Shown here one piece after another: positions 1-10,286 of a stretch of 10,286 bases of DNA (position 1 is its first letter; each line of letters begins with the position of its first letter). The position numbers were made by a program, and so were the translations under genes. Source of the DNA: Elusimicrobiota bacterium (GTDB lineage: Bacteria; Elusimicrobiota; Elusimicrobia; UBA1565); assembly GCA_043819795.1 (NCBI GenBank), contig JBDREN010000229.1, positions 1 through 10,286 on the forward strand, given 5' to 3'. The notes below the pieces were generated by a model. It was given only the letters and a program-made list of their open reading frames with translations, had not been told where the DNA came from and made no database searches.

Positions 1-144
1 CGCCAGCGACGCCACGGCGCCCGCGCCCGCGTTCAGCAGATGATAGGCCGTCGCCCCGGGCGAGGCGTCCCACATCCACCGGACCTGGGTCGTGGACAGG
101 GCGCTGCCCGCGAATCCGAGCACCTCGCCCGGAGCCTGCGGGCC
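1..144 (-). other. Start of a fibronectin type III domain (truncated by window edge)
   Basis: PQAPGEVLGFAGSALSTTQVRWMWDASPGATAYHL fits the FN3 N-terminal pattern P..P......(S/T)...W.W.......Y.L. Confidence 0.7.
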
Positions 145-3100
145 CTTGATCTGGACATCGATGTTCACGCCGCCGCCCTGCGGCACGCTCCTCAGCTGCT
201 GGGTCTGGCCGAAGAACTCTCCCGGATCGTGCGTCTTGTTGAGATTCGAGTCCACGAAGGCGAAGATGGAGTAGTCGGTCGCCGGGCGCAGCAGGTCGAC
301 CTGGTAGTCGATCATGGAGCCCGCGGCCACAGGCCCCGGCCTCACGAAGCTGCGGTTGTCGATCGTGTAGCCGGGGGAGCCGGGCAGGCCGTGCGCCGCC
401 TGCACCACGATCCGGGGATCGCCGGCGACCGCCACCTGGAAGTACAGCCTGCCGTTGACCGCCCCGCGGTCGGTCATCGTGATGTTCTTGCCCGTGAGCG
501 AGTCCCCCGGGTTCACGACGACGGCGGTCAGCACCTGCGAGGACCCGTAGATCGAGAGCGCCTCGGGGGCGACCGACGCGAGGGCGCCGAAGGGCTCGGG
601 GCCTTCCGGCCGACCGTCGTAGTTGCCGTCGCGGAAGGCCAGTATATAGTAGGTGGCCGGGGCCTTCAGGCCGCTGAGCGTGTACGGGCCGCTCGCGGAC
701 TGGATGAGCTCTCCGGCGAACTCCACGTGCCCCTCGAGGTCCGTCACCGTCGTCACCAGGACGTAGTAGTCGCCGAAATTCTGATAGCCCTGATAGGATA
801 TCGCGCCCGCGATCGAAGCCGCGCCCAAGGAGAGCTCGAAGTCCACGCCCGTGGCCGTGGAGCCCGACACGACGTTGACTCCCGTGGCGCCCCCGCGCTG
901 GGACGGGCTGCTCTGCACATAGGCGTCCACGTCGTACATGCCGGGCCTCAGGCCGCCCAACGTGTAGTTGTAGAGCGTCGTCCCGGGAATTAGGGTGAGG
1001 GTGGCCGTGCTCGCGATGAAGGGCTGGCAGGTCGGACAGTAGACCTCGCTGGCCCGGACGAACAGGTCGCCCGTCTGGGCGCCCAGATAGGTGATCGTCC
1101 CCTCGACGGCGCCCGTGGTCGAGCCCGATATCGAGAAGTCCGCGTATACGTGGCCCGTGTTGTTGAAATAATCCCCGCCGAAATCGTTCATCCCCAGGAA
1201 GAGGGTGCCGGGCGTCTCGGCGACCACCGACGTGCCGGTCCCCACGCGGAACCAGCTCCAGCCGCCGCCGATGCGGCCGATGAGCTCGCCCCGCTTGGCG
1301 TCCGGCAGCACCGTGTTCTGGTACTCGGTCCCCGGCAGCCCCCCGGGGCCCACGTCCTGGTATCCGTCCAGGCTCCAGGTCCCGGTGGCCGTGACCGTCA
1401 CGGTGAGCCCGGTCTCGACGAAGAGGCCCGTGTCGATCCCGCCGTCGGCCGGGGCCTGCACGTACATGTCGGCGGGCACCGCGAACAGAACGGCCGCGGA
1501 GCTCGTCTGGATCGGATAGAGGCCCGGCTGATCGGCCATCTCTCCCTGCGACAGGCCGAAGTACGTGCTCGCGGCCAGCTTGAGCGCCGCGACCGGGATC
1601 TTCTGGCCGTAGAGGTCCAGCGTCACGAAGAAGGTCCGCGTCGTCCCCGAGAGAAGCTGCTCGGCGCCCCAGAGATTCAGGGTCCCCGACGATGTGCCGC
1701 CGGAGTACTCCCGGTAGGCGACTTGCATGTCGTTGGCGCCCGCACCGCCCATGGCGTAGGGGTCGAAGAGCTGGTTGAAGTTGTCGTCGCGCCACAGCGC
1801 GATGGAGTAATTATTGGGCGGGACGCTCCCGGAGAAGTCCACGCGCAGGCCGTTGAGCGTGATGTCCGACGCCGCGGCGAAGACGTCGAGCCGGAGCATC
1901 GCGTTGTCGCCGTTGGTGCCGATGAAGCCCTCGTGCGCGGTCTGCGGGGTCACGACCCCGACGCCGCCCGCCACCGCGGAGCCGCCGGTAATCGCGATGT
2001 TCACGGACGTGGTGGTCGAGAGCGCCGTCACCGCGACGCCCGCGGCGGTCCCGCTCGCCTCGAAGTCGTCCGGCTCCCCGTTCCCGTTGACGTCCACGAA
2101 CGCGATCATGTCGTAGGTGGCCGCCCGGGTGTATAGGGAATAGAATCCGCCCGCGTCGGGCGCGTACCCCCGCGCCTCGACGGTCGTGGTGCTGCCGGAG
2201 AGCGCGGCCAGGATCACGATCGGGCCGAACTGGTTGGAGTCGTTGGTCACGTTCCCCTCGACCAAGCCCCAGTCCTCGAGCGTGATGTCCACGCTGCTCG
2301 CGCTGGCGCCCGTGTTCAGGAAGACGGGGTCCGAGCGCAGGGAGCCCGGATTCTGGTAGCCGCCCCGCGGCTCGAACCCGTTGGGCATGTTGTCGTAGCT
2401 CCCGTCGAGATAGGCGAAGAAGTACCACGTGTTGGGGGCCGGAAGGCCGACGACGTTATAAGGGATCCCGCTCGACACCACGATCTCGCAGGCCATGGCT
2501 CCGCCGCCGGTCGTGGGCGCCGGCGGGCACGTCGGCGGGGCGCTGTGGAAAGCGCCCCGCGGGTCCGTGGAGGCGTGCAGGCGGTAGTCGCTCTGCGGGA
2601 CGCCCGCGAAGTACACCGTGCCCGAAACGGAGGCTTGGCCGCCGCCGTCCGGGATCCAGGTCACGACCCGGAACGGGTCCCTCTCGTTGGGCGAGCCGAA
2701 CTTCTCGCCGCTCGCGTTGAGCATGGTGATGGCGGAGCCCGGGGCCACCAGCGCGGCGTCCACGTTCGTGGACACGTCCATGCGGTAGTCGTGGTTCCGG
2801 AACGTCTTGGCGACCGGGGTCGCCGCCTGGAGGATCAAGGACGGCAGCGGGTTCGGGCCGAAGTTCTGGAACGCCACGTAGTCGAAACTGGTGACCGCGG
2901 CGCTCGTGAGCAGGATGGAGACGCCCGCGCTCTCGTCGAACTGCGTGTACCCCATATTGTTCACGTTCACCGTCCCGTCGAGCACCGTGAACGGCACCCG
3001 CTCGGAGCTCACGGGCTCGATGACCACCCAGCCGTACCCCACGCTTCGGAACGTGCCGCCTTGGCTTACGACGACGCCCAGCCTGCCCGCGCGGAGGTGG

Positions 3101-6100
3101 GTGTACTGCGAACCCATATCCAGCGTGCCGCCCGCGACCTGGACCTGTCCCTGGACCTCCAGGGTCGTGTTCTCTCCCATGTCCAGGATGCCGCCCCGGA
3201 TGATGACGTGGCTGGACACGTTCAGCTGGTTGTAGCTGCCCGCCCCGGAGGGGCCGACGATGCGCACCGTCCCCGCATAGGACGTCGTCATCGTGAGCAG
3301 GCCGAGGTCGATCCCGACGATGTCCCACTTGCAGTCCTCGCTGGACACCGCGCCGTCGAAGAGCACCCGGTCGCCCGAGAGCGGCTTCACCCCGCCCTGC
3401 CAGTTATCGGGGGTGCTCGCGTCCTTGTTATAGATGCTGGCGCCCGTCCAGACCCGGGTCACGGTGGAGGACAGGACCTTGAAGTCCACCGAGATGGACC
3501 CGGAGTTATCGGAATAGTCCACGTCGTTCATCGCCAGGACCAGCTGGCCGCTTTGCGTGGACTGGAAGGTGATGCTCGAGCCCACCTGGAACCATGGGCT
3601 GTAGCCCACGCGGGCCGCCAGCGCTCCGATATTGAAGCCCGGGTCGAGGCCGCCGAACTGCCCGCCGAGCCCGCCCGGCCCGCTCGGAGGGTTGCCCCCG
3701 CCGCTTCCCCACGACCCGGCGGCGTTGATCTCCACGTTCTGGCCGACGCCCACGCCGAGCCCCGTGTCGAAGCCGCCCTGGATCGGGATGGAGCCCGGTA
3801 TGGGATAGCCGCCCTGGTCCGGGTTGGCGAAAAGGGAGAACTTGACCAGCGCGATGCCCGACCGGATCGGATAGGTCGCCGGCTGCGGGGCCATCGCGCC
3901 CAAAGACAGCCCGATGTGCGAGGGCTCTTCGACGCCCACGCCTATCTCGTTGCCCGCGGGGATGTTGTTGTAATTCAGCGCGACGAAATAATACTGCGTC
4001 GTCGCGCTCAGGGTCTCGGTGGTGAAATGGATCACTGCCTGCGGCGGGGAGCCGGCGCCGAAGAACGAGCTTCCCATGAACCCGTCCTGCCCCGCCCCGG
4101 GCTCAAGGGCCAGAGTGCCGTTGTCGTCCCGGAACAGACTGGCCTGCACCTGGGCCGAAGGCGCGTCCCCGCCCAGGCTCACGCGCAAGGAGCTCATCTG
4201 CGCGCTGCCGCCGTCGGTGTACATGGCCAGGCCCAGCATGGCCCGGTCATAGACGTCGCCCGGCAGGCTCTGCGGGGCCATGTCCTGTCCCTGCACGAAG
4301 ACCAGGGCGCCGGAGCTGAAGCCGATGTCGATGTTCGCGAAGATCGTCGTCCCGGGCGTCACCGGGCTGAGCGGGCCGGCCACGCCGCCGTCCTCGCCCG
4401 GCTGCTTGCGCATGTCGGCGAAGGCGTCCACGTACGCCTCGACGTAGAGATTGGAGCCGGTCGTGGTGGGCACATAGATCGCGTACTGCGTAGCGCCGTG
4501 CCCCAGCCCGTCGTCCCAGAAGATGTTCTGCGGCTGCGTGTCGCTCGGCGGGCCCAGCCAGGCCTGCACGCGGATCTCGCCGGACTGGAAGCTGCTGTTG
4601 GTGATGGTCCCGGTCACGGCCACCAGGTCGAAGAGCTGGAGGTTCACGCCGGTCGCGGTCGAGTTCGCCGCCACGAACACCGGGGCCGACGGGACCGGAG
4701 CCGTGCTCACGCTGTACCACCCGAAGGGCTCGAACCCGTCGGGGCTCTGGGAGCCGTCGAGGTCCAGCAGCGCCTTGATGAAGTACGTGCTCGGCGCCGG
4801 GAGGTTCGGGATCAGGAAGGTCCCGGAGCTCACGGCAACGAGCTGCGTGCCGGGATCGCTCAGCTCCACCTTCAAGGGATCGGGCGAGACGGCGAGGTAG
4901 TAGGTTCCGGGCCCGGCGGAGCCCGTGTAGCTGAGCTGGCCCGCGATCGCGCCGAAATCCTGCGGACCGACGGCCGCGGCCGAGGAAAGCTGGATGACCT
5001 CGCTGGTGTTGTATTCCGTCCCCCATAGCGCGCCGCTCATGGGATCGAAAGCCAATGAGGCGATGTCCACGCCGCTCTGCACCAGCACCGGGGCCGAGGC
5101 CAGGTTGACGGCGAACGCGGTGCCCCAGTTCTGGTAGCGCCACAGCGACCCGCTCCCGGGCGCGTCTCCGGGATCGGTGTTGGACACGAAGAGGTTCCCG
5201 GCGTTGTCGAATGCGATGGCGAACGGCTTGTCCAGGCCCGTGCGCACCTCTGCCGTCGAGGAATCGATCGTCCCGCCGCCTATGTTGGGATACATCCGGA
5301 TGGCCGACCCGGCCGCCACCCACAGGTTCTTCTCGGTGTCGAAAGCGATCCCGGTCGGCTCGGCGAGATCGGACCCGTAGGCGAAGGGATTGACGCTGAT
5401 ATTGTCGAAGGAAGGCGCGGCCAGGTCGCCGGTGTTGAAGAACTCCACCACGCTCTGCTCCGCGGGCAGGGCCGCTCCCTCGTTGGCCACGAACAGGTTC
5501 CCCGTATTCGTCTTCTGGAAGACGAACGCGTTCGCCTCGTCGAGGTTCCCGGAGAGCACCGCGGAGCTCGTCAGGGAGATCATCCCGCCGCCCTGGTCCT
5601 TGAACTTCGCCAGGAGGTTCGCGGGAGCCCCGCTCGCGGCCGGAGCGCTGGAAACGTTCACCCATAGATTGCCGGCGCTGTCGAAAGCGACGCCCCGCGG
5701 CCCGGGCGTACCGGTGAGCTGCGCGTCCGCCGCCGTGGCCTCGGTGACCGGCGAGGTAGGGCTCACGTACTTCTTGACGCTGTCGAGCCCCTGGTTGGAG
5801 GCCCACAGGTTGCCCATGTAGTCGAAGGCGATGCCCCAAAAGCCGTCGGTCTCAAGGGGAGGGGTGTACCCGTTGTTCGAGCGGCGGAGGAGTCTCGCCT
5901 TGCTGGTCGGGGAGCCCGAGGCGCCCGCCATGTAGGAGTACTGGCCGTGTACGGCCAGGGCCTTGCCCTCGTCGTCCTCGCCGTTCCTGTCGTACTGCGT
6001 CGAGGAAACGAAGCCGAGGTTCTCGTTGTGCTCGTAGAGCTTGTAGTCCCCGAACGGACCGGGATTGGCCTCCCAGATCGAGTAGACGTGGTTGTTGGCC

Positions 6101-9100
6101 GTCCTGAGGTTGTGCGGCTTGCCGGCGATGGCGGCGGTCGTCATCGTGACGTCGTTCTGGAAAGCCAGACCGGAGCTGAACTTCGCCACCTTGGCCTGGC
6201 TCGACGCCTCGATGTAGTAGCTCACGAACACGTCCCCGGCCGAGCCCACGGCCAGCCCGCCCTCTCGGGGCACCTGCCCGGAGATGTCGGTCGAGCCCAA
6301 CTGGTTGAGGTTGAAGTCGTACTTGCGGATGACCCTGCTGCCGCCCGTGATATCGGTGCCCGCGGTCGCGTAGACGAGCTGGTTCTGGGGGTCCGCGGCG
6401 ATCGCGTGGCCGTAGGCGAAGCCGGCGATCGTGGCGGTGCTCAGCAGGCTCATAGTGGTGGTGTCGAACTTGAAGACCTTGGCGTTCCCCGAGCCTCCGC
6501 CGTCGTTGACCGTGAACAGGACGTCATTGACCGCGATCAGGTCCATATAGCCGCCGGTCACGGCCGGGTCCACCTGGACCTGCGCCACGCGCTCGAGGCT
6601 GGACGAGTACTTCCTCAGGGTCCCCGTGGACGCGTAGGTGACCTGGTCCACGAGGTTGCCGCCCACGTACAGGAAGCCGGACAAGTCCACCGTGGGCGAA
6701 TAGTGCCCGGCGGAGTGCACGTCCGAGGTGGAGCTGATGAACACCCCGGCCGAGCTCAGCTTGACGAGAGCCGCCGAGTAATTGGCCATATTCTGCGTGA
6801 GCAGGTAGATCGTCGGCGGGTTCGCCGTGCTCGTGTCCAGGATCACGCCCACGCCCGCGACGCTCTCCCCCGGGCTTGAGGCCTCGACCCCGCTCGCGGC
6901 CGCGAGGTGCCCCGTCACCGTCACGGTGGAGGCGGTCGGAGCCGCCCCGCCCGCGCTCCCCGAGAACCGCATCACTCGGTTGGAGCTCGTGTCCGAGACC
7001 CACAGGTTGCCCTGGCGGTCCAGCGCGATGTCCCGGTAGACCCCGGCGAAGCCGGCGGCCGTGGTCGCGAAATCGAAGGTGGCGAAGTCGGGCTGGCCGA
7101 TGACCACCGACGGGGCGGGGTTCCCCCCCGTGATGGGAGCGTCGAAGCGGAGGATCCGGGTGTGGTCGTAGTTGAGGACCCACAGGTTCCCTGCCGCGTC
7201 GAACTCCAGGCCGGCCGAGCTGGAGAGAAGCCCGGCGGTGCCGGTAACGAAGTCCGTCTGCCCGAGCACGAGGTCCGCCGCCATGCCGTTGGTGAACGGC
7301 GGGCTGAACCGGAGGACGCGGTTGTTCCCGTCGTCGCCGACCCACACGTTCCCGGCCGCGTCCACGGCTATGCCCTCCAGGTCGCTGAACTTGGTGGCCG
7401 TGGTGCCGCCCCCGTTGCTGACGAAGTCGCCCTGGCCGAGGACGACGTCCGCGGCCATGCCGTTGGCGAACGGCGGCGAGAAGCGCAGGATCCTAGTGTT
7501 GTCGTAGTCCGCGACCCACAGGGCCCCGTCCGGCCCGATCGCCAGGTCCGAGGGACCGCCCAGGTCGGTCTGGCTCGGCCCATAGCTCAGGCTCGTAAAG
7601 GTGGGCTCCCCGATCACGAGGTCCGCGGCCTGGTAGTTCGAGAAGGGCGGGCTGAAGCGCAGCACCCTGCCGCGGCCCGTGTCGCCCACCCACAGGTTGC
7701 CCTCGCTGTCAACCGTGGCGCCGAACTGGTTGCAGAAGTCCTTGGCGCTAGTGGAGCCGGGGCAGCCGCTGGAGGCGAAGTCCGCCGCGCCGAGCACCAG
7801 CGAGGCGTTCTCGCCGTTCGCGCTCAGGCTGTCGAACCGGAGCATCCGGCTGTTCCCATAGCCGACCACCCAGACCCGCCCCTCCGGGTCGACCGTGATG
7901 TCGTAAGGGGAGCGAAGCCCGCTCTGGTTGACGGTATTGGTCCCGTCCTTGTTCTTGAGAGCCGCGGTGAAGTTGTCCTGGCCCAGCACCAGGTCCGCGC
8001 TCTGGCCGTTGGTGAAGTTCAGAGCCGGCGGGAAGGCCTGCGCCACGGACAAAGGCGGAGCGGCCGGCATCGCGAACTTCATGGTCCGCATGTCGAACGT
8101 CGAATCGTCGAACGGGTCCGGCGAGGAAGCCCCGGTCACGTAGGCGTAGTTGAAGCTGTCGAGCGCGATCCCCTGCGGATAGTCGCCGCCCGAGCCCGCG
8201 TACCCCTTCGTCGACTGGATGACCAGGTCCTGGTCGTACTGGATGGCCACCCAGTCGTCGCCCGTGGGACTGCCGTCGTAGTAGGCGTCGCCGATGACGT
8301 AGACGTTGTCGAAAACGTCCACCGCCACGTCCGCCCCTTCCTGCCCCGCCGCGTAGGTGGCCGTCGTGATCTGCGCGAGGTTCGTGTCGTACTTGATTGT
8401 CAGGATATCCCTGTTGGATGGGGAGGCCATGCCGTCGGTGCCCACGACGTAGACAAACCCGGAGGCGTGGCCCGCCGCGATGCTCAACCGCTCCATGCCC
8501 TCATGCCTGGAGATAAAGGGCATGCCGTCGGCGTAGGTCGCCGAGGCCAGCATGACGAGAGTCGGATCGTACTTCACGGTCACGAACCGAGTGGCCCCGC
8601 CCTGCAGGCTCTCGCCAGTCACGTAGACGCTGCCGGAGCCGTCCACGGCCACGGACCGCCCGTACTCCTCCGCGCCCCCGTCGAACGTGGCGCTGTTCAC
8701 GAAATTAAGATTCCAGTCGTACTTGACGACCTTGAAATCGTTCGGAGGGGTCCCGCCGCCGCCCGCCACGTACACGCTGCCGGAATCGTCCAACGCGATT
8801 CCCCGGGCGCCGAAGTCACCCATGAGATATGCGGAGGTCGAGAAGCTCAGATCGAGGTTGTACCGGAGCGTCACCCACGCCAGGGGGCTCAACTGCTGCG
8901 CCGTGACGTAGACGCCGTTCGTGTTGAGGGCGATATCGAGCCCGACCCCGTCGCTGAACGTCGTGGACGAGATCAAGGTCCCCGAGGAGTCGTACTTGAC
9001 GACCAATGCCTGCTCCATCCCCGTCTGCGAGGACATCGCGACCGCGTACACGTAGGGCCCGCCCGCGGTGAAGGTGTCCACCGCCACCGCCGTTCCCATG

Positions 9101-10284
9101 TCGAAGTCGCCGCCGTCGAAGGTCGCTCCGCCGACCTGGGCGAAGTCGCCCGCGAACCCGGAGCCCGCGGCACCCCCCGCCGTGCTCAGGAACAGGCCGT
9201 AGAGGTCGTTGTTGTTCGTCGCGTCGAGCTGAGCGGGGACATCCTCGCGGTTGATGGCCGCCAGGTATTTCCCGCCGCCCATGGCCACGGATACCGTCCA
9301 CGCGGCCTTGCCGGACACGGCCGACGCCACCGTCTCGGCCGAGCCGATCGGGCTCAGGTCCGAAGCGAAGCTTCTTTGCTGGATGGTCGCGGTCGAGGAG
9401 AAGAGCTCCCCGTCCATCCACGTGATGATGTACTCCGAACCGTTCGGAACGATCGTCGGGAACACCTGGGTGCCCGGGGCATCGGCGATCGGCATGCTGG
9501 AGGACACCACTCCCGCGACGGAGACCTTCGCCGCGTAGAGATCCCACGTGCCGGCCGGGTCGTCATGGTACGCCACCACGAAATCCGTCCCGTCGAAGAT
9601 CACAGGAGCCGGGTTGTCGCTCAGGAACGCGTTCTGGTGGATCGGAATCTCTCCGCCGCTCAACGTCCCATCGGGCAGCACGAACTGGCCCCCCACGTTG
9701 TTCATATCGCTGAACGTGACCAGATACTTGCCGCCGCCGAACGCCACGGAAGCGTCCTTCTGATTGTTCGCCTTCGAGCTGATGACGAACTCCCCACCCA
9801 CCAGGGATCCTGCCTGCGATACCCGCTGCCCGTAAACGTCCTTGTCGCCCGAGCGCACGTCGTTCCACACGACCAGATAGTCGGTGCCGTCGAAGGCGAG
9901 CGCCGACTCGGATATGGTGGAGGTGGCGACGGTGAACGCCCCGCCCACCAGGCCGCCCGCCGTGTCGACGAACTGGCCCTTGATCGAGCTGACAACGGGA
10001 TCCCCCCCCGTTTCGGAGATGATCAGGTAGTTGGTCCCGTCGAAGGCCACCAGGGGCGCCCCTTCCATGCCGCTGGCGCCCGAGACGTTGATGAGCGAGC
10101 CTACCGCTGAGCCCGAGACGTCGTAGCGCTGAGCGTAGATGGTGTAGACGGACGTCGTGGAGTTGATGTTCGAGTACGCGACGAGGAAGTTCGTCCCGTC
10201 GAAAGCGACGCTATGGAACCCGGCCATTTCGTCTTCGTCGGTCTCGGCGATGACGAACTCCTGCGCGCCCTTGGCGTGGACCAG
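1..10284 (-). CDS. Giant multidomain secreted/surface protein (adhesin-like; beta-propellers, prealbumin-like sandwiches, LecA-like lectins, beta-helix, FN3); partial at both ends, >=3,428 aa
   Basis: Manual translation of the minus frame starting at 10284 (LVHAKGAQEFVIAETDEDEMAGFHSVAFDGTNFLVAY...) and ending at 1 (...GATAYHLLNAGAGAVASLA) has no stop: no tta/cta/tca triplet occurs in + frame 1. Third positions are strongly G/C biased. Composition is G/S/T/A/V/D-rich, Cys-poor and beta-strand-like, with recognisable repeat motifs throughout. Confidence 0.97.
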   Translation of the reverse strand, partial: MVHAKGAQEFVIAETDEDEMAGFHSVAFDGTNFLVAYSNINSTTSVYTIYAQRYDVSGSAVGSLINVSGASGMEGAPLVAFDGTNYLIISETGGDPVVSSIKGQFVDTAGGLVGGAFTVATSTISESALAFDGTDYLVVWNDVRSGDKDVYGQRVSQAGSLVGGEFVISSKANNQKDASVAFGGGKYLVTFSDMNNVGGQFVLPDGTLSGGEIPIHQNAFLSDNPAPVIFDGTDFVVAYHDDPAGTWDLYAAKVSVAGVVSSSMPIADAPGTQVFPTIVPNGSEYIITWMDGELFSSTATIQQRSFASDLSPIGSAETVASAVSGKAAWTVSVAMGGGKYLAAINREDVPAQLDATNNNDLYGLFLSTAGGAAGSGFAGDFAQVGGATFDGGDFDMGTAVAVDTFTAGGPYVYAVAMSSQTGMEQALVVKYDSSGTLISSTTFSDGVGLDIALNTNGVYVTAQQLSPLAWVTLRYNLDLSFSTSAYLMGDFGARGIALDDSGSVYVAGGGGTPPNDFKVVKYDWNLNFVNSATFDGGAEEYGRSVAVDGSGSVYVTGESLQGGATRFVTVKYDPTLVMLASATYADGMPFISRHEGMERLSIAAGHASGFVYVVGTDGMASPSNRDILTIKYDTNLAQITTATYAAGQEGADVAVDVFDNVYVIGDAYYDGSPTGDDWVAIQYDQDLVIQSTKGYAGSGGDYPQGIALDSFNYAYVTGASSPDPFDDSTFDMRTMKFAMPAAPPLSVAQAFPPALNFTNGQSADLVLGQDNFTAALKNKDGTNTVNQSGLRSPYDITVDPEGRVWVVGYGNSRMLRFDSLSANGENASLVLGAADFASSGCPGSTSAKDFCNQFGATVDSEGNLWVGDTGRGRVLRFSPPFSNYQAADLVIGEPTFTSLSYGPSQTDLGGPSDLAIGPDGALWVADYDNTRILRFSPPFANGMAADVVLGQGDFVSNGGGTTATKFSDLEGIAVDAAGNVWVGDDGNNRVLRFSPPFTNGMAADLVLGQTDFVTGTAGLLSSSAGLEFDAAGNLWVLNYDHTRILRFDAPITGGNPAPSVVIGQPDFATFDFATTAAGFAGVYRDIALDRQGNLWVSDTSSNRVMRFSGSAGGAAPTASTVTVTGHLAAASGVEASSPGESVAGVGVILDTSTANPPTIYLLTQNMANYSAALVKLSSAGVFISSTSDVHSAGHYSPTVDLSGFLYVGGNLVDQVTYASTGTLRKYSSSLERVAQVQVDPAVTGGYMDLIAVNDVLFTVNDGGGSGNAKVFKFDTTTMSLLSTATIAGFAYGHAIAADPQNQLVYATAGTDITGGSRVIRKYDFNLNQLGSTDISGQVPREGGLAVGSAGDVFVSYYIEASSQAKVAKFSSGLAFQNDVTMTTAAIAGKPHNLRTANNHVYSIWEANPGPFGDYKLYEHNENLGFVSSTQYDRNGEDDEGKALAVHGQYSYMAGASGSPTSKARLLRRSNNGYTPPLETDGFWGIAFDYMGNLWASNQGLDSVKKYVSPTSPVTEATAADAQLTGTPGPRGVAFDSAGNLWVNVSSAPAASGAPANLLAKFKDQGGGMISLTSSAVLSGNLDEANAFVFQKTNTGNLFVANEGAALPAEQSVVEFFNTGDLAAPSFDNISVNPFAYGSDLAEPTGIAFDTEKNLWVAAGSAIRMYPNIGGGTIDSSTAEVRTGLDKPFAIAFDNAGNLFVSNTDPGDAPGSGSLWRYQNWGTAFAVNLASAPVLVQSGVDIASLAFDPMSGALWGTEYNTSEVIQLSSAAAVGPQDFGAIAGQLSYTGSAGPGTYYLAVSPDPLKVELSDPGTQLVAVSSGTFLIPNLPAPSTYFIKALLDLDGSQSPDGFEPFGWYSVSTAPVPSAPVFVAANSTATGVNLQLFDLVAVTGTITNSSFQSGEIRVQAWLGPPSDTQPQNIFWDDGLGHGATQYAIYVPTTTGSNLYVEAYVDAFADMRKQPGEDGGVAGPLSPVTPGTTIFANIDIGFSSGALVFVQGQDMAPQSLPGDVYDRAMLGLAMYTDGGSAQMSSLRVSLGGDAPSAQVQASLFRDDNGTLALEPGAGQDGFMGSSFFGAGSPPQAVIHFTTETLSATTQYYFVALNYNNIPAGNEIGVGVEEPSHIGLSLGAMAPQPATYPIRSGIALVKFSLFANPDQGGYPIPGSIPIQGGFDTGLGVGVGQNVEINAAGSWGSGGGNPPSGPGGLGGQFGGLDPGFNIGALAARVGYSPWFQVGSSITFQSTQSGQLVLAMNDVDYSDNSGSISVDFKVLSSTVTRVWTGASIYNKDASTPDNWQGGVKPLSGDRVLFDGAVSSEDCKWDIVGIDLGLLTMTTSYAGTVRIVGPSGAGSYNQLNVSSHVIIRGGILDMGENTTLEVQGQVQVAGGTLDMGSQYTHLRAGRLGVVVSQGGTFRSVGYGWVVIEPVSSERVPFTVLDGTVNVNNMGYTQFDESAGVSILLTSAAVTSFDYVAFQNFGPNPLPSLILQAATPVAKTFRNHDYRMDVSTNVDAALVAPGSAITMLNASGEKFGSPNERDPFRVVTWIPDGGGQASVSGTVYFAGVPQSDYRLHASTDPRGAFHSAPPTCPPAPTTGGGAMACEIVVSSGIPYNVVGLPAPNTWYFFAYLDGSYDNMPNGFEPRGGYQNPGSLRSDPVFLNTGASASSVDITLEDWGLVEGNVTNDSNQFGPIVILAALSGSTTTVEARGYAPDAGGFYSLYTRAATYDMIAFVDVNGNGEPDDFEASGTAAGVAVTALSTTTSVNIAITGGSAVAGGVGVVTPQTAHEGFIGTNGDNAMLRLDVFAAASDITLNGLRVDFSGSVPPNNYSIALWRDDNFNQLFDPYAMGGAGANDMQVAYREYSGGTSSGTLNLWGAEQLLSGTTRTFFVTLDLYGQKIPVAALKLAASTYFGLSQGEMADQPGLYPIQTSSAAVLFAVPADMYVQAPADGGIDTGLFVETGLTVTVTATGTWSLDGYQDVGPGGLPGTEYQNTVLPDAKRGELIGRIGGGWSWFRVGTGTSVVAETPGTLFLGMNDFGGDYFNNTGHVYADFSISGSTTGAVEGTITYLGAQTGDLFVRASEVYCPTCQPFIASTATLTLIPGTTLYNYTLGGLRPGMYDVDAYVQSSPSQRGGATGVNVVSGSTATGVDFELSLGAASIAGAISYQGYQNFGDYYVLVTTVTDLEGHVEFAGELIQSASGPYTLSGLKAPATYYILAFRDGNYDGRPEGPEPFGALASVAPEALSIYGSSQVLTAVVVNPGDSLTGKNITMTDRGAVNGRLYFQVAVAGDPRIVVQAAHGLPGSPGYTIDNRSFVRPGPVAAGSMIDYQVDLLRPATDYSIFAFVDSNLNKTHDPGEFFGQTQQLRSVPQGGGVNIDVQIKGPQAPGEVLGFAGSALSTTQVRWMWDASPGATAYHLLNAGAGAVASLA
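145..1113 (-). other. Three tandem prealbumin-like beta-sandwich domains, T5 (829-1113), T6 (469-828), T7 (145-468)
   Basis: T5: GAVEGTITY...YTLGGLRPGMYDVDAY...GVDFEL. T6: ASIAGAISY...YTLSGLKAPATYYILAFRD...KNITMTD. T7: GAVNGRLY...LLRPATDYSIFAFVD...IDVQI. The YTLxGLxPGxYxV motif is typical of CarboxypepD_reg-like domains. Confidence 0.7.
1129..1488 (-). other. LecA/PA-IL-like lectin domain, copy 2
   Basis: GGIDTGLFVETGLTVTVTATGTWSLDGYQDVGPGGLPGTEYQNTVLPDAKRGELIGRIG...FRVG...GTLFLGMNDFGGDYFNNTGHVYADF. It aligns without gaps to remembered LecA residues 30-70 and 98-110. Confidence 0.85.
1489..1965 (-). other. Unassigned ~155-aa beta-sandwich domain X, copy 2
   Basis: AMLRLDVFAAASDITLNGLRVDFSG...ALWRDDNFNQLFD...TTRTFFVTLD...YFGLSQGEMADQPGLYPIQT. 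Confidence 0.6.
1987..2640 (-). other. Two tandem prealbumin-like beta-sandwich domains, T3 (2272-2640) and T4 (1987-2271)
   Basis: T3: ASVSGTVYF...GLPAPNTWYFFAYLDGSYDNMPNGFEPRGGY...VDITLED. T4: LVEGNVTN...TYDMIAFVDVNGNGEPDDFE...VNIAIT. These are homologous to T1 and T2. Confidence 0.68.
2650..3462 (-). other. Predicted right-handed beta-helix domain with WxG...NW..P..GD.V.F N-cap
   Basis: Cap RVWTGASIYNKDASTPDNWQGGVKPLSGDRVLFD, then rung-like repeats (HVIIRGGILDMG, QVQVAGGTLDMG, GVVVSQGGTFRS, FTVLDGTVNV), ending ITMLNASGEKFGSPNERDPFRVVTW. Confidence 0.65.
3478..3840 (-). other. LecA/PA-IL-like lectin domain, copy 1
   Basis: GGFDTGL...VEINAAGSW...GPGG...GALAARVG...FQVG...SGQLVLAMNDVDYSDNSGSISVDF. 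Compare P. aeruginosa LecA as recalled from memory: ITIVAAGW...GPQG...GALVMKIG...[25 protein letters not shown]. Confidence 0.8.
3841..4305 (-). other. Unassigned ~155-aa beta-sandwich domain X, copy 1
   Basis: AMLGLAMYTDGGSAQMSSLRVSLGG...SLFRDDNG...TTQYYFVALN...HIGLSLGAMAPQPATYPIRS aligns motif by motif with copy 2 at 1489-1965. Confidence 0.6.
4321..4953 (-). other. Two tandem carboxypeptidase-regulatory-like (prealbumin-fold) beta-sandwich domains, T1 (4627-4953) and T2 (4321-4626)
   Basis: Each ~100-aa unit starts with an (I/V)xGx(I/L) strand (GAIAGQLSY; AVTGTITN). It then has a Y-x-(I/V)-x-A-x-x-D strand plus a 12-residue acidic loop, and ends in (V/I)(N/D)(L/I) (GVNLQLFD; NIDIG). Confidence 0.65.
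4987..5850 (-). repeat. Propeller 5: six NHL/SGL-like repeats
   Basis: WGIAFDYMGNLWAS, PRGVAFDSAGNLWVN, AFVFQKTNTGNLFVAN, PTGIAFDTEKNLWVA, PFAIAFDNAGNLFVSN, SLAFDPMSGALWGT. Confidence 0.85.
5881..6930 (-). repeat. Propeller 4: divergent seven-bladed SBBP-like propeller
   Basis: Seven blades: GVILDTSTANPPTIYLL..VKLS, TVDLSGFLYVG..RKYS, LIAVNDVLFTV..FKFD, AIAADPQNQLVYAT..RKYD, LAVGSAGDVFVS..AKFS, LRTANNHVYSI..YEHN, ALAVHGQYSYMAG..LLRR. Confidence 0.72.
6961..8016 (-). repeat. Propeller 3: six long NHL repeats with 'ADLVLGQxDF' insert
   Basis: Six units of (A/S)D(L/V)V(L/I)GQxDF...DxxGNLWVxDxxNxR(V/I)LRF, for example ADLVLGQDNF, ADVVLGQGDF, ADLVLGQTDF, SVVIGQPDF and DRQGNLWVSDTSSNRVMRF. Unit length is 55-64 aa. 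Confidence 0.9.
8071..9144 (-). repeat. Propeller 2: seven SBBP-like repeats (seven-bladed beta-propeller)
   Basis: Blades AVAVDTFTAGGPYVYAV, DIALNTNGVYVT, GIALDDSGSVYVAG, SVAVDGSGSVYVTGES, SIAAGHASGFVYVVG, DVAVDVFDNVYVIG, GIALDSFNYAYVTG, each followed by a (V/I)KYD-type strand. This matches the remembered SBBP consensus IAVDxxGNVYVTG...xxKYD. Confidence 0.85.
9181..10260 (-). repeat. Propeller 1: seven 'VAFDGTNYLVxW'-type repeats (predicted 7-bladed beta-propeller)
   Basis: Repeat cores: VAFDGTNFLVAY, VAFDGTNYLII, LAFDGTDYLVVW, VAFGGGKYLVTF, VIFDGTDFVVAY, IVPNGSEYIITW, VAMGGGKYLAAI. Each is followed by an (I/V/L)Y(A/G)Q(R/F)-like strand, with about 50 aa spacing. Confidence 0.85.
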
Positions 10285-10286
10285 CG

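Follow-up and report, generated by a model that had tools for sequence, protein, structure and literature searches.

Giant lectin-bearing proteins of Elusimicrobiota with a T9SS-like tail, an adjoining PorV-family barrel, and a predicted self-cleaving joint

The stretch of DNA analysed here (the window, 10,286 nt, the entire contig C229 of an Elusimicrobiota genome) forms the middle third of a single very large gene, whose product belongs to a real, conserved, and uncharacterised protein family. We consider it fairly probable that this product works as a lectin adhesin dependent on calcium, that it leaves the cell by a reduced T9SS-like route and docks on a PorV-type barrel of its own, and that it can be released at a MAIN-like site. 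This reading builds on the open frame and its contig overlaps, the domain order, a conserved core behind a variable head, an HFS motif, a tail domain ahead of a PorV-family gene, and a SprA homologue that the same genome encodes. In its working the protein likely resembles both T9SS cargo and MAIN proteins, to judge from profiles and models, and membership of either group is predicted.

The initial annotation had proposed an uninterrupted frame on the minus strand. Computational translation of positions 10284 to 1, searched for in-frame stops, gives 3,428 codons and none, which confirms the proposal. For comparison, the longest stop-free run among 200 shuffles of the window was 501 codons. The GC content at codon positions 1, 2, and 3 is 0.60, 0.50, and 0.93 in this frame and matches the coding pattern of a genome with 67% GC. 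That the gene is missing from the start-to-stop ORF track is also correct, and it is a contig-edge effect, since the frame is open at both contig ends. The antisense frame is nearly open, as had been remarked, with only 7 stops, yet these correspond exactly to the 3 TCA, 4 CTA, and 0 TTA codons of the minus-strand gene. Because the third-position GC of the real gene is high, the near-open plus frame is a mere shadow of it. Rfam gave no match among the eight sources scanned, hence no riboswitch in those stretches.

The protein had been expected to be longer than the window, and this was borne out. Unique exact overlaps of 141 nt between contig ends chain C57(+), C229(-), and C79(-) into a frame of 8,441 codons without a stop, of which the window covers codons 2710-6137. 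Translation likely begins at a GTG, C57:1765, preceded by a purine-rich stretch. This codon is followed by a signal-peptide-like leader (basic-hydrophobic-A-x-A, read by eye) in which the windowed hydropathy reaches its maximum for the joined protein (1.95), and comparable leaders are present in the 10 complete orthologues. No exact overlap leads from C79 onward. Contig C228 is matched by the tails of 7/7 orthologues tested (49-58% over about 1,140 residues), the next-best match being C3 (27-31%), which encodes a paralogous giant. Placed by orthology, without an overlap, C228 likely carries the last 1,132 residues, across a gap of around 230-265 codons estimated from orthologues, for a total of about 9,800 aa, near 1 MDa. 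Contigs C176 and C218 were considered as the continuation of C79 and rejected, since the orthologue tails match C228 and not these contigs. One low-depth DNA sequencing run yielded scattered short pieces and nothing bridging the contigs. A second copy of the PorV end, 89-93% identical to that of C228, is found on C196. Since C228 was set by orthology and this second copy is nearly identical, the joined pieces could derive from two close copies. The similarity (C228:282-1213 and C196:1-1015) includes the start of the following FecR-like gene, which on C228 is interrupted by a multi-copy element carrying what we take to be the start of a transposase.

The window encodes five propeller segments, seven transthyretin/CnaB-like sandwiches, two sialidase-CBM-like and two LecA-like domains, a single beta-helix, and the opening part of an FN3-like domain (Table 1). 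The count of about 18 domains in the initial annotation thus stands, on the basis of Pfam and PDB matches, profiles built here, and two structure models (pLDDT 84 and 87), the latter two defining the architecture of the core. Its placement of an FN3 domain at the C-terminal end of the window also holds, the first FN3 being read from the sequence and only the next one scored by Pfam. Propellers 2, 3, and 5 are backed by Pfam or PDB. For propeller 1 no family match was found in Pfam or in the Atlas clusters, where the nearest named clusters are BNR/sialidase (0.83-0.86, leads only).

Table 1. Features of the window, with residues numbered along the 3,428-codon frame
Feature	Residues (aa)	Positions	Strand	Basis and remarks
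Internal segment of a gene likely spanning about 9,800 codons		1..10284	-	5' part on C57, 3' part on C79, then likely C228
Exact 141-nt overlap with C57 (which carries the start codon and signal-peptide-like leader)		10146..10286	-	End match
Propeller 1	1-370	9175..10284	-	Seven spaced repeats; no known family; in 1 orthologue only
Propeller 2, SBBP type	375-740	8065..9162	-	PF06739, E 2.9e-11
Propeller 3, NHL type	745-1110	6955..8052	-	PF01436, E 7.7e-28
Propeller 4	1115-1475	5860..6942	-	Likeness to SBBP-type (propeller-2-type) segments; no Pfam match
Propeller 5, NHL/PknD-sensor-like	1476-1772	4969..5859	-	PknD 1rwi, E 1.3e-15; final head domain, ahead of the core
Two transthyretin/CnaB-like beta-sandwiches with acidic D-x-[DN]-x-[DN] loops	1777-1991	4312..4956	-	Profiles and model
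Sialidase N-terminal CBM-like sandwich 1	1992-2145	3850..4311	-	Model comparison; conserved core starts
LecA/PA-IL-like domain 1	2151-2273	3466..3834	-	3zyb, Z 12.8, rmsd 2.2, 106 aligned
Right-handed beta-helix	2274-2545	2650..3465	-	Model; Vag8 7akv Z 16.3, alginate lyase 6kfn Z 15.4
Two acidic-loop sandwiches	2551-2772	1969..2634	-	Profiles
Sialidase N-terminal CBM-like sandwich 2	2773-2930	1495..1968	-	Profiles
LecA/PA-IL-like domain 2	2933-3055	1120..1488	-	Full-length calcium loop; PF07828 E 2.6e-4, below cut-off
Three acidic-loop sandwiches, stalk start	3058-3381	142..1113	-	Profiles
FN3-like domain start; exact 141-nt overlap with C79		1..141	-	End match and sequence reading

The window had been described as lacking any recognisable enzyme or transmembrane segment, and the searches agree. 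The highest 19-residue hydropathy is 1.46, i.e. there is no transmembrane stretch. In scans covering the assembled parts, neither the 26 pieces into which the chain was cut nor its last 1,132 residues matched a catalytic Pfam family. The same is true of 31 pieces from the heads of 11 orthologue sequences at E up to 1e-4, many of which had no match of any kind. Matches to SGL, phytase-like, and similar Pfam families are cross-matches of propeller repeats.

The core was characterised by comparison with known structures. The CBM-like domain most resembles the N-terminal carbohydrate-binding module of Bacteroidota sialidases: sandwich 1 aligns with 6mnj at Z 10.2 (rmsd 2.9, 135 aligned), a middling score, and with 8gn6 at Z 9.7. 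PF14873 is found on 13% of one cluster, which is a lead only, and the sandwich/CBM profile had no sequence match in PDB. The lectin profile, built from 28 domains, matches only LecA-family entries in PDB (LecA, PllA, EclA, 5/5, best E 4.8e-11). In LecA, D100, N107, and N108 are described as contacting calcium and the 3- and 4-OH of the sugar (PMC10243309). The first position is D in 27/28 of our domains, the second D or N in 28/28, and the third N in 24/28, while the position of T104 is D in 15/28. The galactose-O6 contacts of LecA are not kept, His50 aligning to Thr in the profile consensus and the Gln53 position not being conserved. Since His50 is not kept, the sugar specificity likely differs. 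By profile and model, these domains have the LecA fold and its calcium ligands. They share the fold and calcium-loop residues with LecA/PA-IL, PllA, and EclA (1l7l, 5odu, 6ygq), but here the domain occurs twice within a chain of megadalton size, and a CBM-like domain precedes it both times. The beta-helix aligns with Vag8 over 231 residues (rmsd 3.1) and with 6kfn at rmsd 3.5, and we treat the two as tied. Its invariant residues are cap Gly, Trp, and Pro; the groove acids are not invariant. We infer from their sequence that the acidic loops of the sandwiches bind calcium.

A scan of genome contigs with the single protein returned nothing, and the family was found by a scan with an alignment. 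This identified 35 loci: 33 long matches, of which 32 are in Elusimicrobia/Elusimicrobiota and one is labelled 'bacterium', and 2 in Gammaproteobacteria that are short and weak. Of the 40 relatives, 19 match the C-terminal base strongly (E < 1e-100) and one more does so weakly; the window core is matched strongly in 15/40, with three more weak. Because the remaining 21 relatives have no strong match to the base, the protein is either dispensable or unassembled there. Among 150 genomes of the phylum, the full module of lectins and beta-helix was matched end to end only in the source genome and in 5 of 7 genomes of the same order, and the beta-helix part was matched weakly in 9 others. Ten orthologues are complete on single contigs and span 5,626-8,968 codons from stop to stop. 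The order CBM-LecA-helix-sandwich-sandwich-CBM-LecA is kept in 12/12 orthologue sequences from 11 genomes and in 13/13 relatives from a database search covering proteins up to 5,999 aa. These database relatives are named only 'hypothetical', 'uncharacterized (DUF2141)', or not at all, and the literature searched holds no such family. This agrees with the initial remark that the combination was not recognised as a characterised protein.

The two sides of the lectin cassette behave very differently. From the cassette to the C-terminus, all 12 orthologue sequences have 5,050-5,570 residues. The head that precedes it is about 4,660 residues long here; in relatives its length lies between about 180 and about 3,900, and its content in propellers, beta-helices, Ig, and FN3 domains differs. 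Family members are of about 2,450, 3,650, 5,400-5,900, and 6,200-9,000 aa and have the C-terminal base in common, their N-ends being different. The short ones (about 2,450 aa in L075, L077, and L080, 3,646 in L064) consist of their own leader and the C-terminal part only. Among the listed matches to a profile of the HFS region (see below), 27 have at least 4,000 aa, some of them paralogues; 14 carry two lectin domains, 2 carry one, and 11 carry none. Variation of the N-end on a fixed base is thus the polarity expected of a protein anchored at its C-terminus. The initial annotation had suggested an adhesin with a binding head and a stalk. A giant, non-enzymatic, exported protein is supported, but the lectins are not part of the variable head, since their cassette is conserved in 12/12 sequences. 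In the C57 part of the gene, three tandem units of about 610 codons (propeller, Ig, FN3-like; L001:4981-9919) share 74% DNA identity and are best read as a recent expansion of the head.

The lectin core is usually single-copy and occupies a chromosomal position that recurs between genomes. In one relative the gene is present twice in complete form, with a different head each time (G034:C9 and G034:C26, loci L041-L044; 5,626 and 7,096 codons). In four relatives (L015, L020, L029, L030) the cassette sits after two recurring genes, presumably those of the primase and of the main sigma factor.

The true C-terminus and the neighbouring genes had been singled out as the place to look for the export route, and they reveal a FlgD-Ig/T9SS-like tail followed by a PorV-family gene. 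The chain ends in a FlgD_ig domain (30.2 bits for a cut-off of 27), and TIGR04183 reaches 21.8 bits on it, below its cut-off of 23. Against PDB, the best match of the tail profile is flagellar FlgD (E 0.002), and the tails of PorZ and PorU are matched at E 0.16 and 0.84. A lysine near the C-terminus, Lys113, is invariant in 27/27 aligned tails; a conserved lysine near the end is reported as a feature of type A CTDs (PMC10994853). The next gene begins at the stop codon and belongs to the PorV/PorQ family (NF033709, 163 bits for a cut-off of 90), whose profile matches PorV 6h3i at E 3.5e-18. The tail is followed by PorV in 29 of the 33 loci, the other four being cut by contig ends. Unlike in an autotransporter, no barrel family was found in the last 1,132 residues and the chain ends in an Ig-like tail. 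The Pfam matches to the protein include no SLH or LPXTG anchor and no RTX family, and a signal-peptide-like leader is present.

When modelled as a complex, tail and barrel scored 0.95, the best of three controls scoring 0.00. Contacts agree at 99% between runs, the pLDDT of the partners is at least 87, and Lys113 is in contact with barrel residues 98-99. Of 157 solved pairs, 116 reach the mark, as do 2 of 215 mismatched ones. We take the model as evidence of likeness, not of binding, because the solved PorV-CTD complex may explain the pass. Docking of the tail on the adjoining PorV-family barrel is hence a prediction. In the source genome, 22 of the 29 PorV-family loci follow a gene with such a tail; a pattern search identified 16 of them, and inspection of the sequence ends added 6.

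Reviews assign the T9SS to Bacteroidota or to the FCB group. The source genome encodes a SprA homologue of 1,857 aa on C134, which aligns in three collinear stretches and is about 500 residues shorter than SprA. Such a gene is found in 39/41 genomes, TIGR04189 being below its cut-off in 41/41. A profile of 17 SprA-like sequences matches SprA alone in PDB (E 2.7e-20); the single protein had no PDB match there, and Pfam SprA_N, run without a control, gave none. GldL, GldM, and GldN had no match in the source genome, which is 90% complete, nor did any control genome give a signal, and the same holds for the PorU sortase family (PF01364, C25). The release of cargo from SprA is reported to require the GldLM motor in Flavobacterium (PMC10994853), and that none was found here speaks against the T9SS-like reading. 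The literature searched, with most subscription journals outside it, contains nothing on T9SS in Elusimicrobiota.

With type A cargo (Flavobacterium johnsoniae; 6h3i, 8gl6; PMC10994853) the protein shares the leader, the Ig-like tail with its lysine, the PorV-family barrel, and a SprA homologue. It differs in being outside Bacteroidota, in the 20-29 or so PorV-family genes or loci, mostly one per cargo, in the shorter and divergent SprA, in that GldL, GldM, GldN, and PorU were not found, and in the HFS domain before the tail. Type A CTDs of Bacteroidota are described as sharing one PorV, on which they are not normally retained (PMC12618676; PMC10994853), and cargo of this type can go to the medium (PMC10994853). 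With type B adhesins such as SprB, which uses PorP/SprF shuttles in the account of PMC12618676, the protein shares the arrangement of a large (here probable) adhesin genetically linked to its own carrier barrel, which can serve as anchor, but the carrier is here of the PorV/PorQ family, the tail is FlgD-Ig/type A-like, and no gliding motor was found.

Several genes around these loci recur. An unassigned barrel-like gene and a cNMP-binding gene lie upstream, to which relatives add a FecR-like gene and a second cassette with a giant of 3,600 aa. In relatives, the FecR-like gene and the barrel-like gene of about 400 aa, which has no Pfam or NCBIfam family, precede both giants, together with a stand-alone cNMP-binding gene (L001:3-1184; L036:831-3751). 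The SprA-like gene (L090:8952-14525, C134) adjoins LptF/G permease genes and a TraF_2-like barrel, and the LptF/G-like neighbours recur in several relatives.

Just before the tail, we identified the motif H[FL]S in 28 of the 29 complete tails (24 HFS and 4 HLS). HFS is 139-158 residues from the C-terminus, and 141 here. A profile of this region matches 398 proteins at E up to 0.001. Among the 150 matches listed, 139 have a tail domain behind the region, 79 combine an HFS/HFT-type motif with the tail (73 HFS, 5 HFT, 1 HYS), and 18 have HLS. In 33-35 of these 150, HFS is replaced by HAS, possibly a non-cleaving or slow variant. By pattern, 17 of 30 tail-bearing cargoes lack HFS. In the source genome the profile matches 15 of 17,979 frames, each of which has HFS or HFT at a distance of 40-128 residues from its end. 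Twelve HFS/HFT proteins there have no match to the tail profile (e.g. C50:1246-5364, C178:30005-33910, C120:40132-44199, and C86:1-3645); at least four of these have a C-terminal tail of another kind, about 110 aa long and bearing a Cys-containing motif, possibly another sorting signal.

The HFS domain itself has no direct match in Pfam or PDB. Its profile reaches an SLH-anchored protein in which Pfam ZU5 is over its cut-off (E 2.4e-11, hhalign probability 95%, 72 columns) and an LPXTG-anchored LRR/FN3 protein (E 6.3e-13), and both carry HFS. The MAIN domains of Bacillota are reported to cleave between F and S, the products staying associated (10.64898/2026.05.12.724683). The profile links make it likely that the HFS domain is related to the autoproteolytic MAIN/ZU5 domains and is a self-cleaving joint. 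MAIN proteins such as Bacillus subtilis YfkN (10.64898/2026.05.12.724683; for the ZU5 superfamily, PMC3482391) are described with the same order of signal peptide, adhesion domains, HFS domain, and anchor. They are large too, and the profile of the HFS domain forms a link to SLH- and LPXTG-anchored HFS proteins. In contrast to them, the anchor is here a T9SS-like tail on an outer-membrane barrel rather than a sortase, wall-binding, or SLH anchor, and cleavage is predicted. The main text of the MAIN preprint (10.64898/2026.05.12.724683) names neither Elusimicrobiota nor T9SS, and its tables of 15,000 proteins may include such proteins. The literature searched contained no paper on a cleavage joint with a T9SS-like tail or on this lectin family.

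If the protein is an anchored adhesin of this kind, it would leave the cytoplasm by the Sec pathway, via its hydrophobic leader, and pass tail-first through the SprA-like pore on its own carrier. Given one barrel per cargo and the lack of a match to a PorU-type sortase, it would be retained on this PorV-family carrier after export. The two pairs of CBM-like and LecA-like domains and the exchangeable propeller head would then be held out by a stalk of some 20 sandwich and FN3 domains, and the ligand would be a glycan on a surface, which need not be galactose. Cutting between F and S, in the manner of the MAIN domains of Bacillota, would leave the two parts held non-covalently until pulled off, allowing a release that depends on force or conditions. 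A more ambitious formulation, which we put forward tentatively, is that Elusimicrobiota have megadalton lectin adhesins with an undescribed three-part anchor, in which a self-cleaving domain of GAIN-like type is combined with a T9SS tail and a PorV barrel private to the protein, and which is served by a motor-less SprA pore. The barrel would be the permanent dock and the cleaved joint a fuse for release under shear, and the family would grow through the exchange of modules at its distal N-end, while a base of about 2,300 residues stays fixed. Every part has a known relative, and the combination is absent from the literature searched. If true, this would be a Gram-negative counterpart of the shedding of adhesion GPCRs and MAIN proteins.

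Other functions can be considered. Self-cleavage might replace the missing sortase, the passenger being shed at once as a free matrix or aggregation lectin and the barrel reused. This accounts for the lack of a C25/PorU match in the source genome (in a search without a responding control), for the position of HFS, 141 residues from the end and directly before the tail, and for the reported release of some type A cargo into the medium (PMC10994853). Yet the MAIN cleavage products described as tested stay associated (10.64898/2026.05.12.724683), a dedicated barrel per cargo (22/29 loci) fits anchoring better than recycling, and 17/30 tail-bearing cargoes have no HFS by pattern, so that we regard immediate shedding as unlikely. 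Somewhat less likely still is an attack on prey or substrate, in which the lectins grip a target cell or polysaccharide while a lyase, sialidase, or hydrolase goes unrecognised in the beta-helix or in one of the propellers. The beta-helix is nearly as close to lyases and depolymerases (Z 15.4) as to Vag8 (Z 16.3), the CBM-like domains resemble those of sialidases, the nearest Atlas clusters to propeller 1 are BNR/sialidase (0.83-0.86, leads only), and predation has been proposed for the giants of Omnitrophota (10.1101/2023.11.21.568195). Against it, no catalytic Pfam family was found in the 26 own or the 31 orthologue head pieces, and the invariant residues of the beta-helix are in the cap and are not groove acids.

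A structural role in the envelope, as a calcium-stiffened fibre or surface layer whose lectins bind the cell's own glycans such as LPS, would suit the numerous acidic loops and the presence of the lectins in a conserved core, usually in one copy per genome and at a recurring position. The free variation of the head, the short family members without the lectin cassette, and the 21/40 relatives without a strong match all speak against this role, which we find improbable. Finally, the whole could be an artefact of a wrong strand or a chimeric assembly, given three assembly breaks inside the gene and a near-duplicate of the downstream region in the same genome. The codon pattern and the exact accounting of antisense stops, the collinear orthologues on single contigs (5,626-8,968 codons), and the confident structure models (pLDDT 84 and 87) largely refute this explanation and leave it a very slight chance.

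The reading as a docked, releasable adhesin raises the question of how a chain of 1 MDa is exported and held, since it describes cargoes of 2,450-9,800 residues with their own PorV-type carriers, a SprA-like pore, and no detected motor or sortase. The HFS domain would be a sortase-free answer and, if true, would show that MAIN domains with force-dependent release also serve anchors in the outer membrane. Expression and testing are feasible for the pair of tail and barrel (about 420 residues), for the HFS domain, and for the lectin domains of 125 residues, all of which are small enough.

Elusimicrobiota are reported to be rich in huge proteins without COG assignment (PMC11573180; 10.1101/2023.11.21.568195), and the source genome has further frames of 12,270, 10,012, and 9,998 codons. 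Hence, size alone is no novelty. The protein shares its size class and phylum enrichment with the giants described in Elusimicrobiota and Omnitrophota (PMC11573180; 10.1101/2023.11.21.568195; 10.64898/2026.06.07.730766), but those of Omnitrophota are said there to often have membrane helices and T2SS or pilus neighbours, neither of which is present here in the parts examined. In their available text, the same papers give no architecture or export route for the giants of Elusimicrobiota, and our results supply an architecture for the huge proteins without COG assignment of the published survey (PMC11573180). The largest of the other frames in the source genome, C218:1-36810 (12,270 codons), joins C176 (2,171 codons) by an exact overlap of 141 nt into a frame of at least 14,390 codons, open at its 5' end, which ends in a FlgD-Ig tail ahead of a PorV-family gene. 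A paralogous giant of 3,600 aa (C3:9914-20093), intact in relatives, is split into frames of 2,337 and 1,229 codons by a frameshift or an assembly error, with HFS, tail, and PorV all present.
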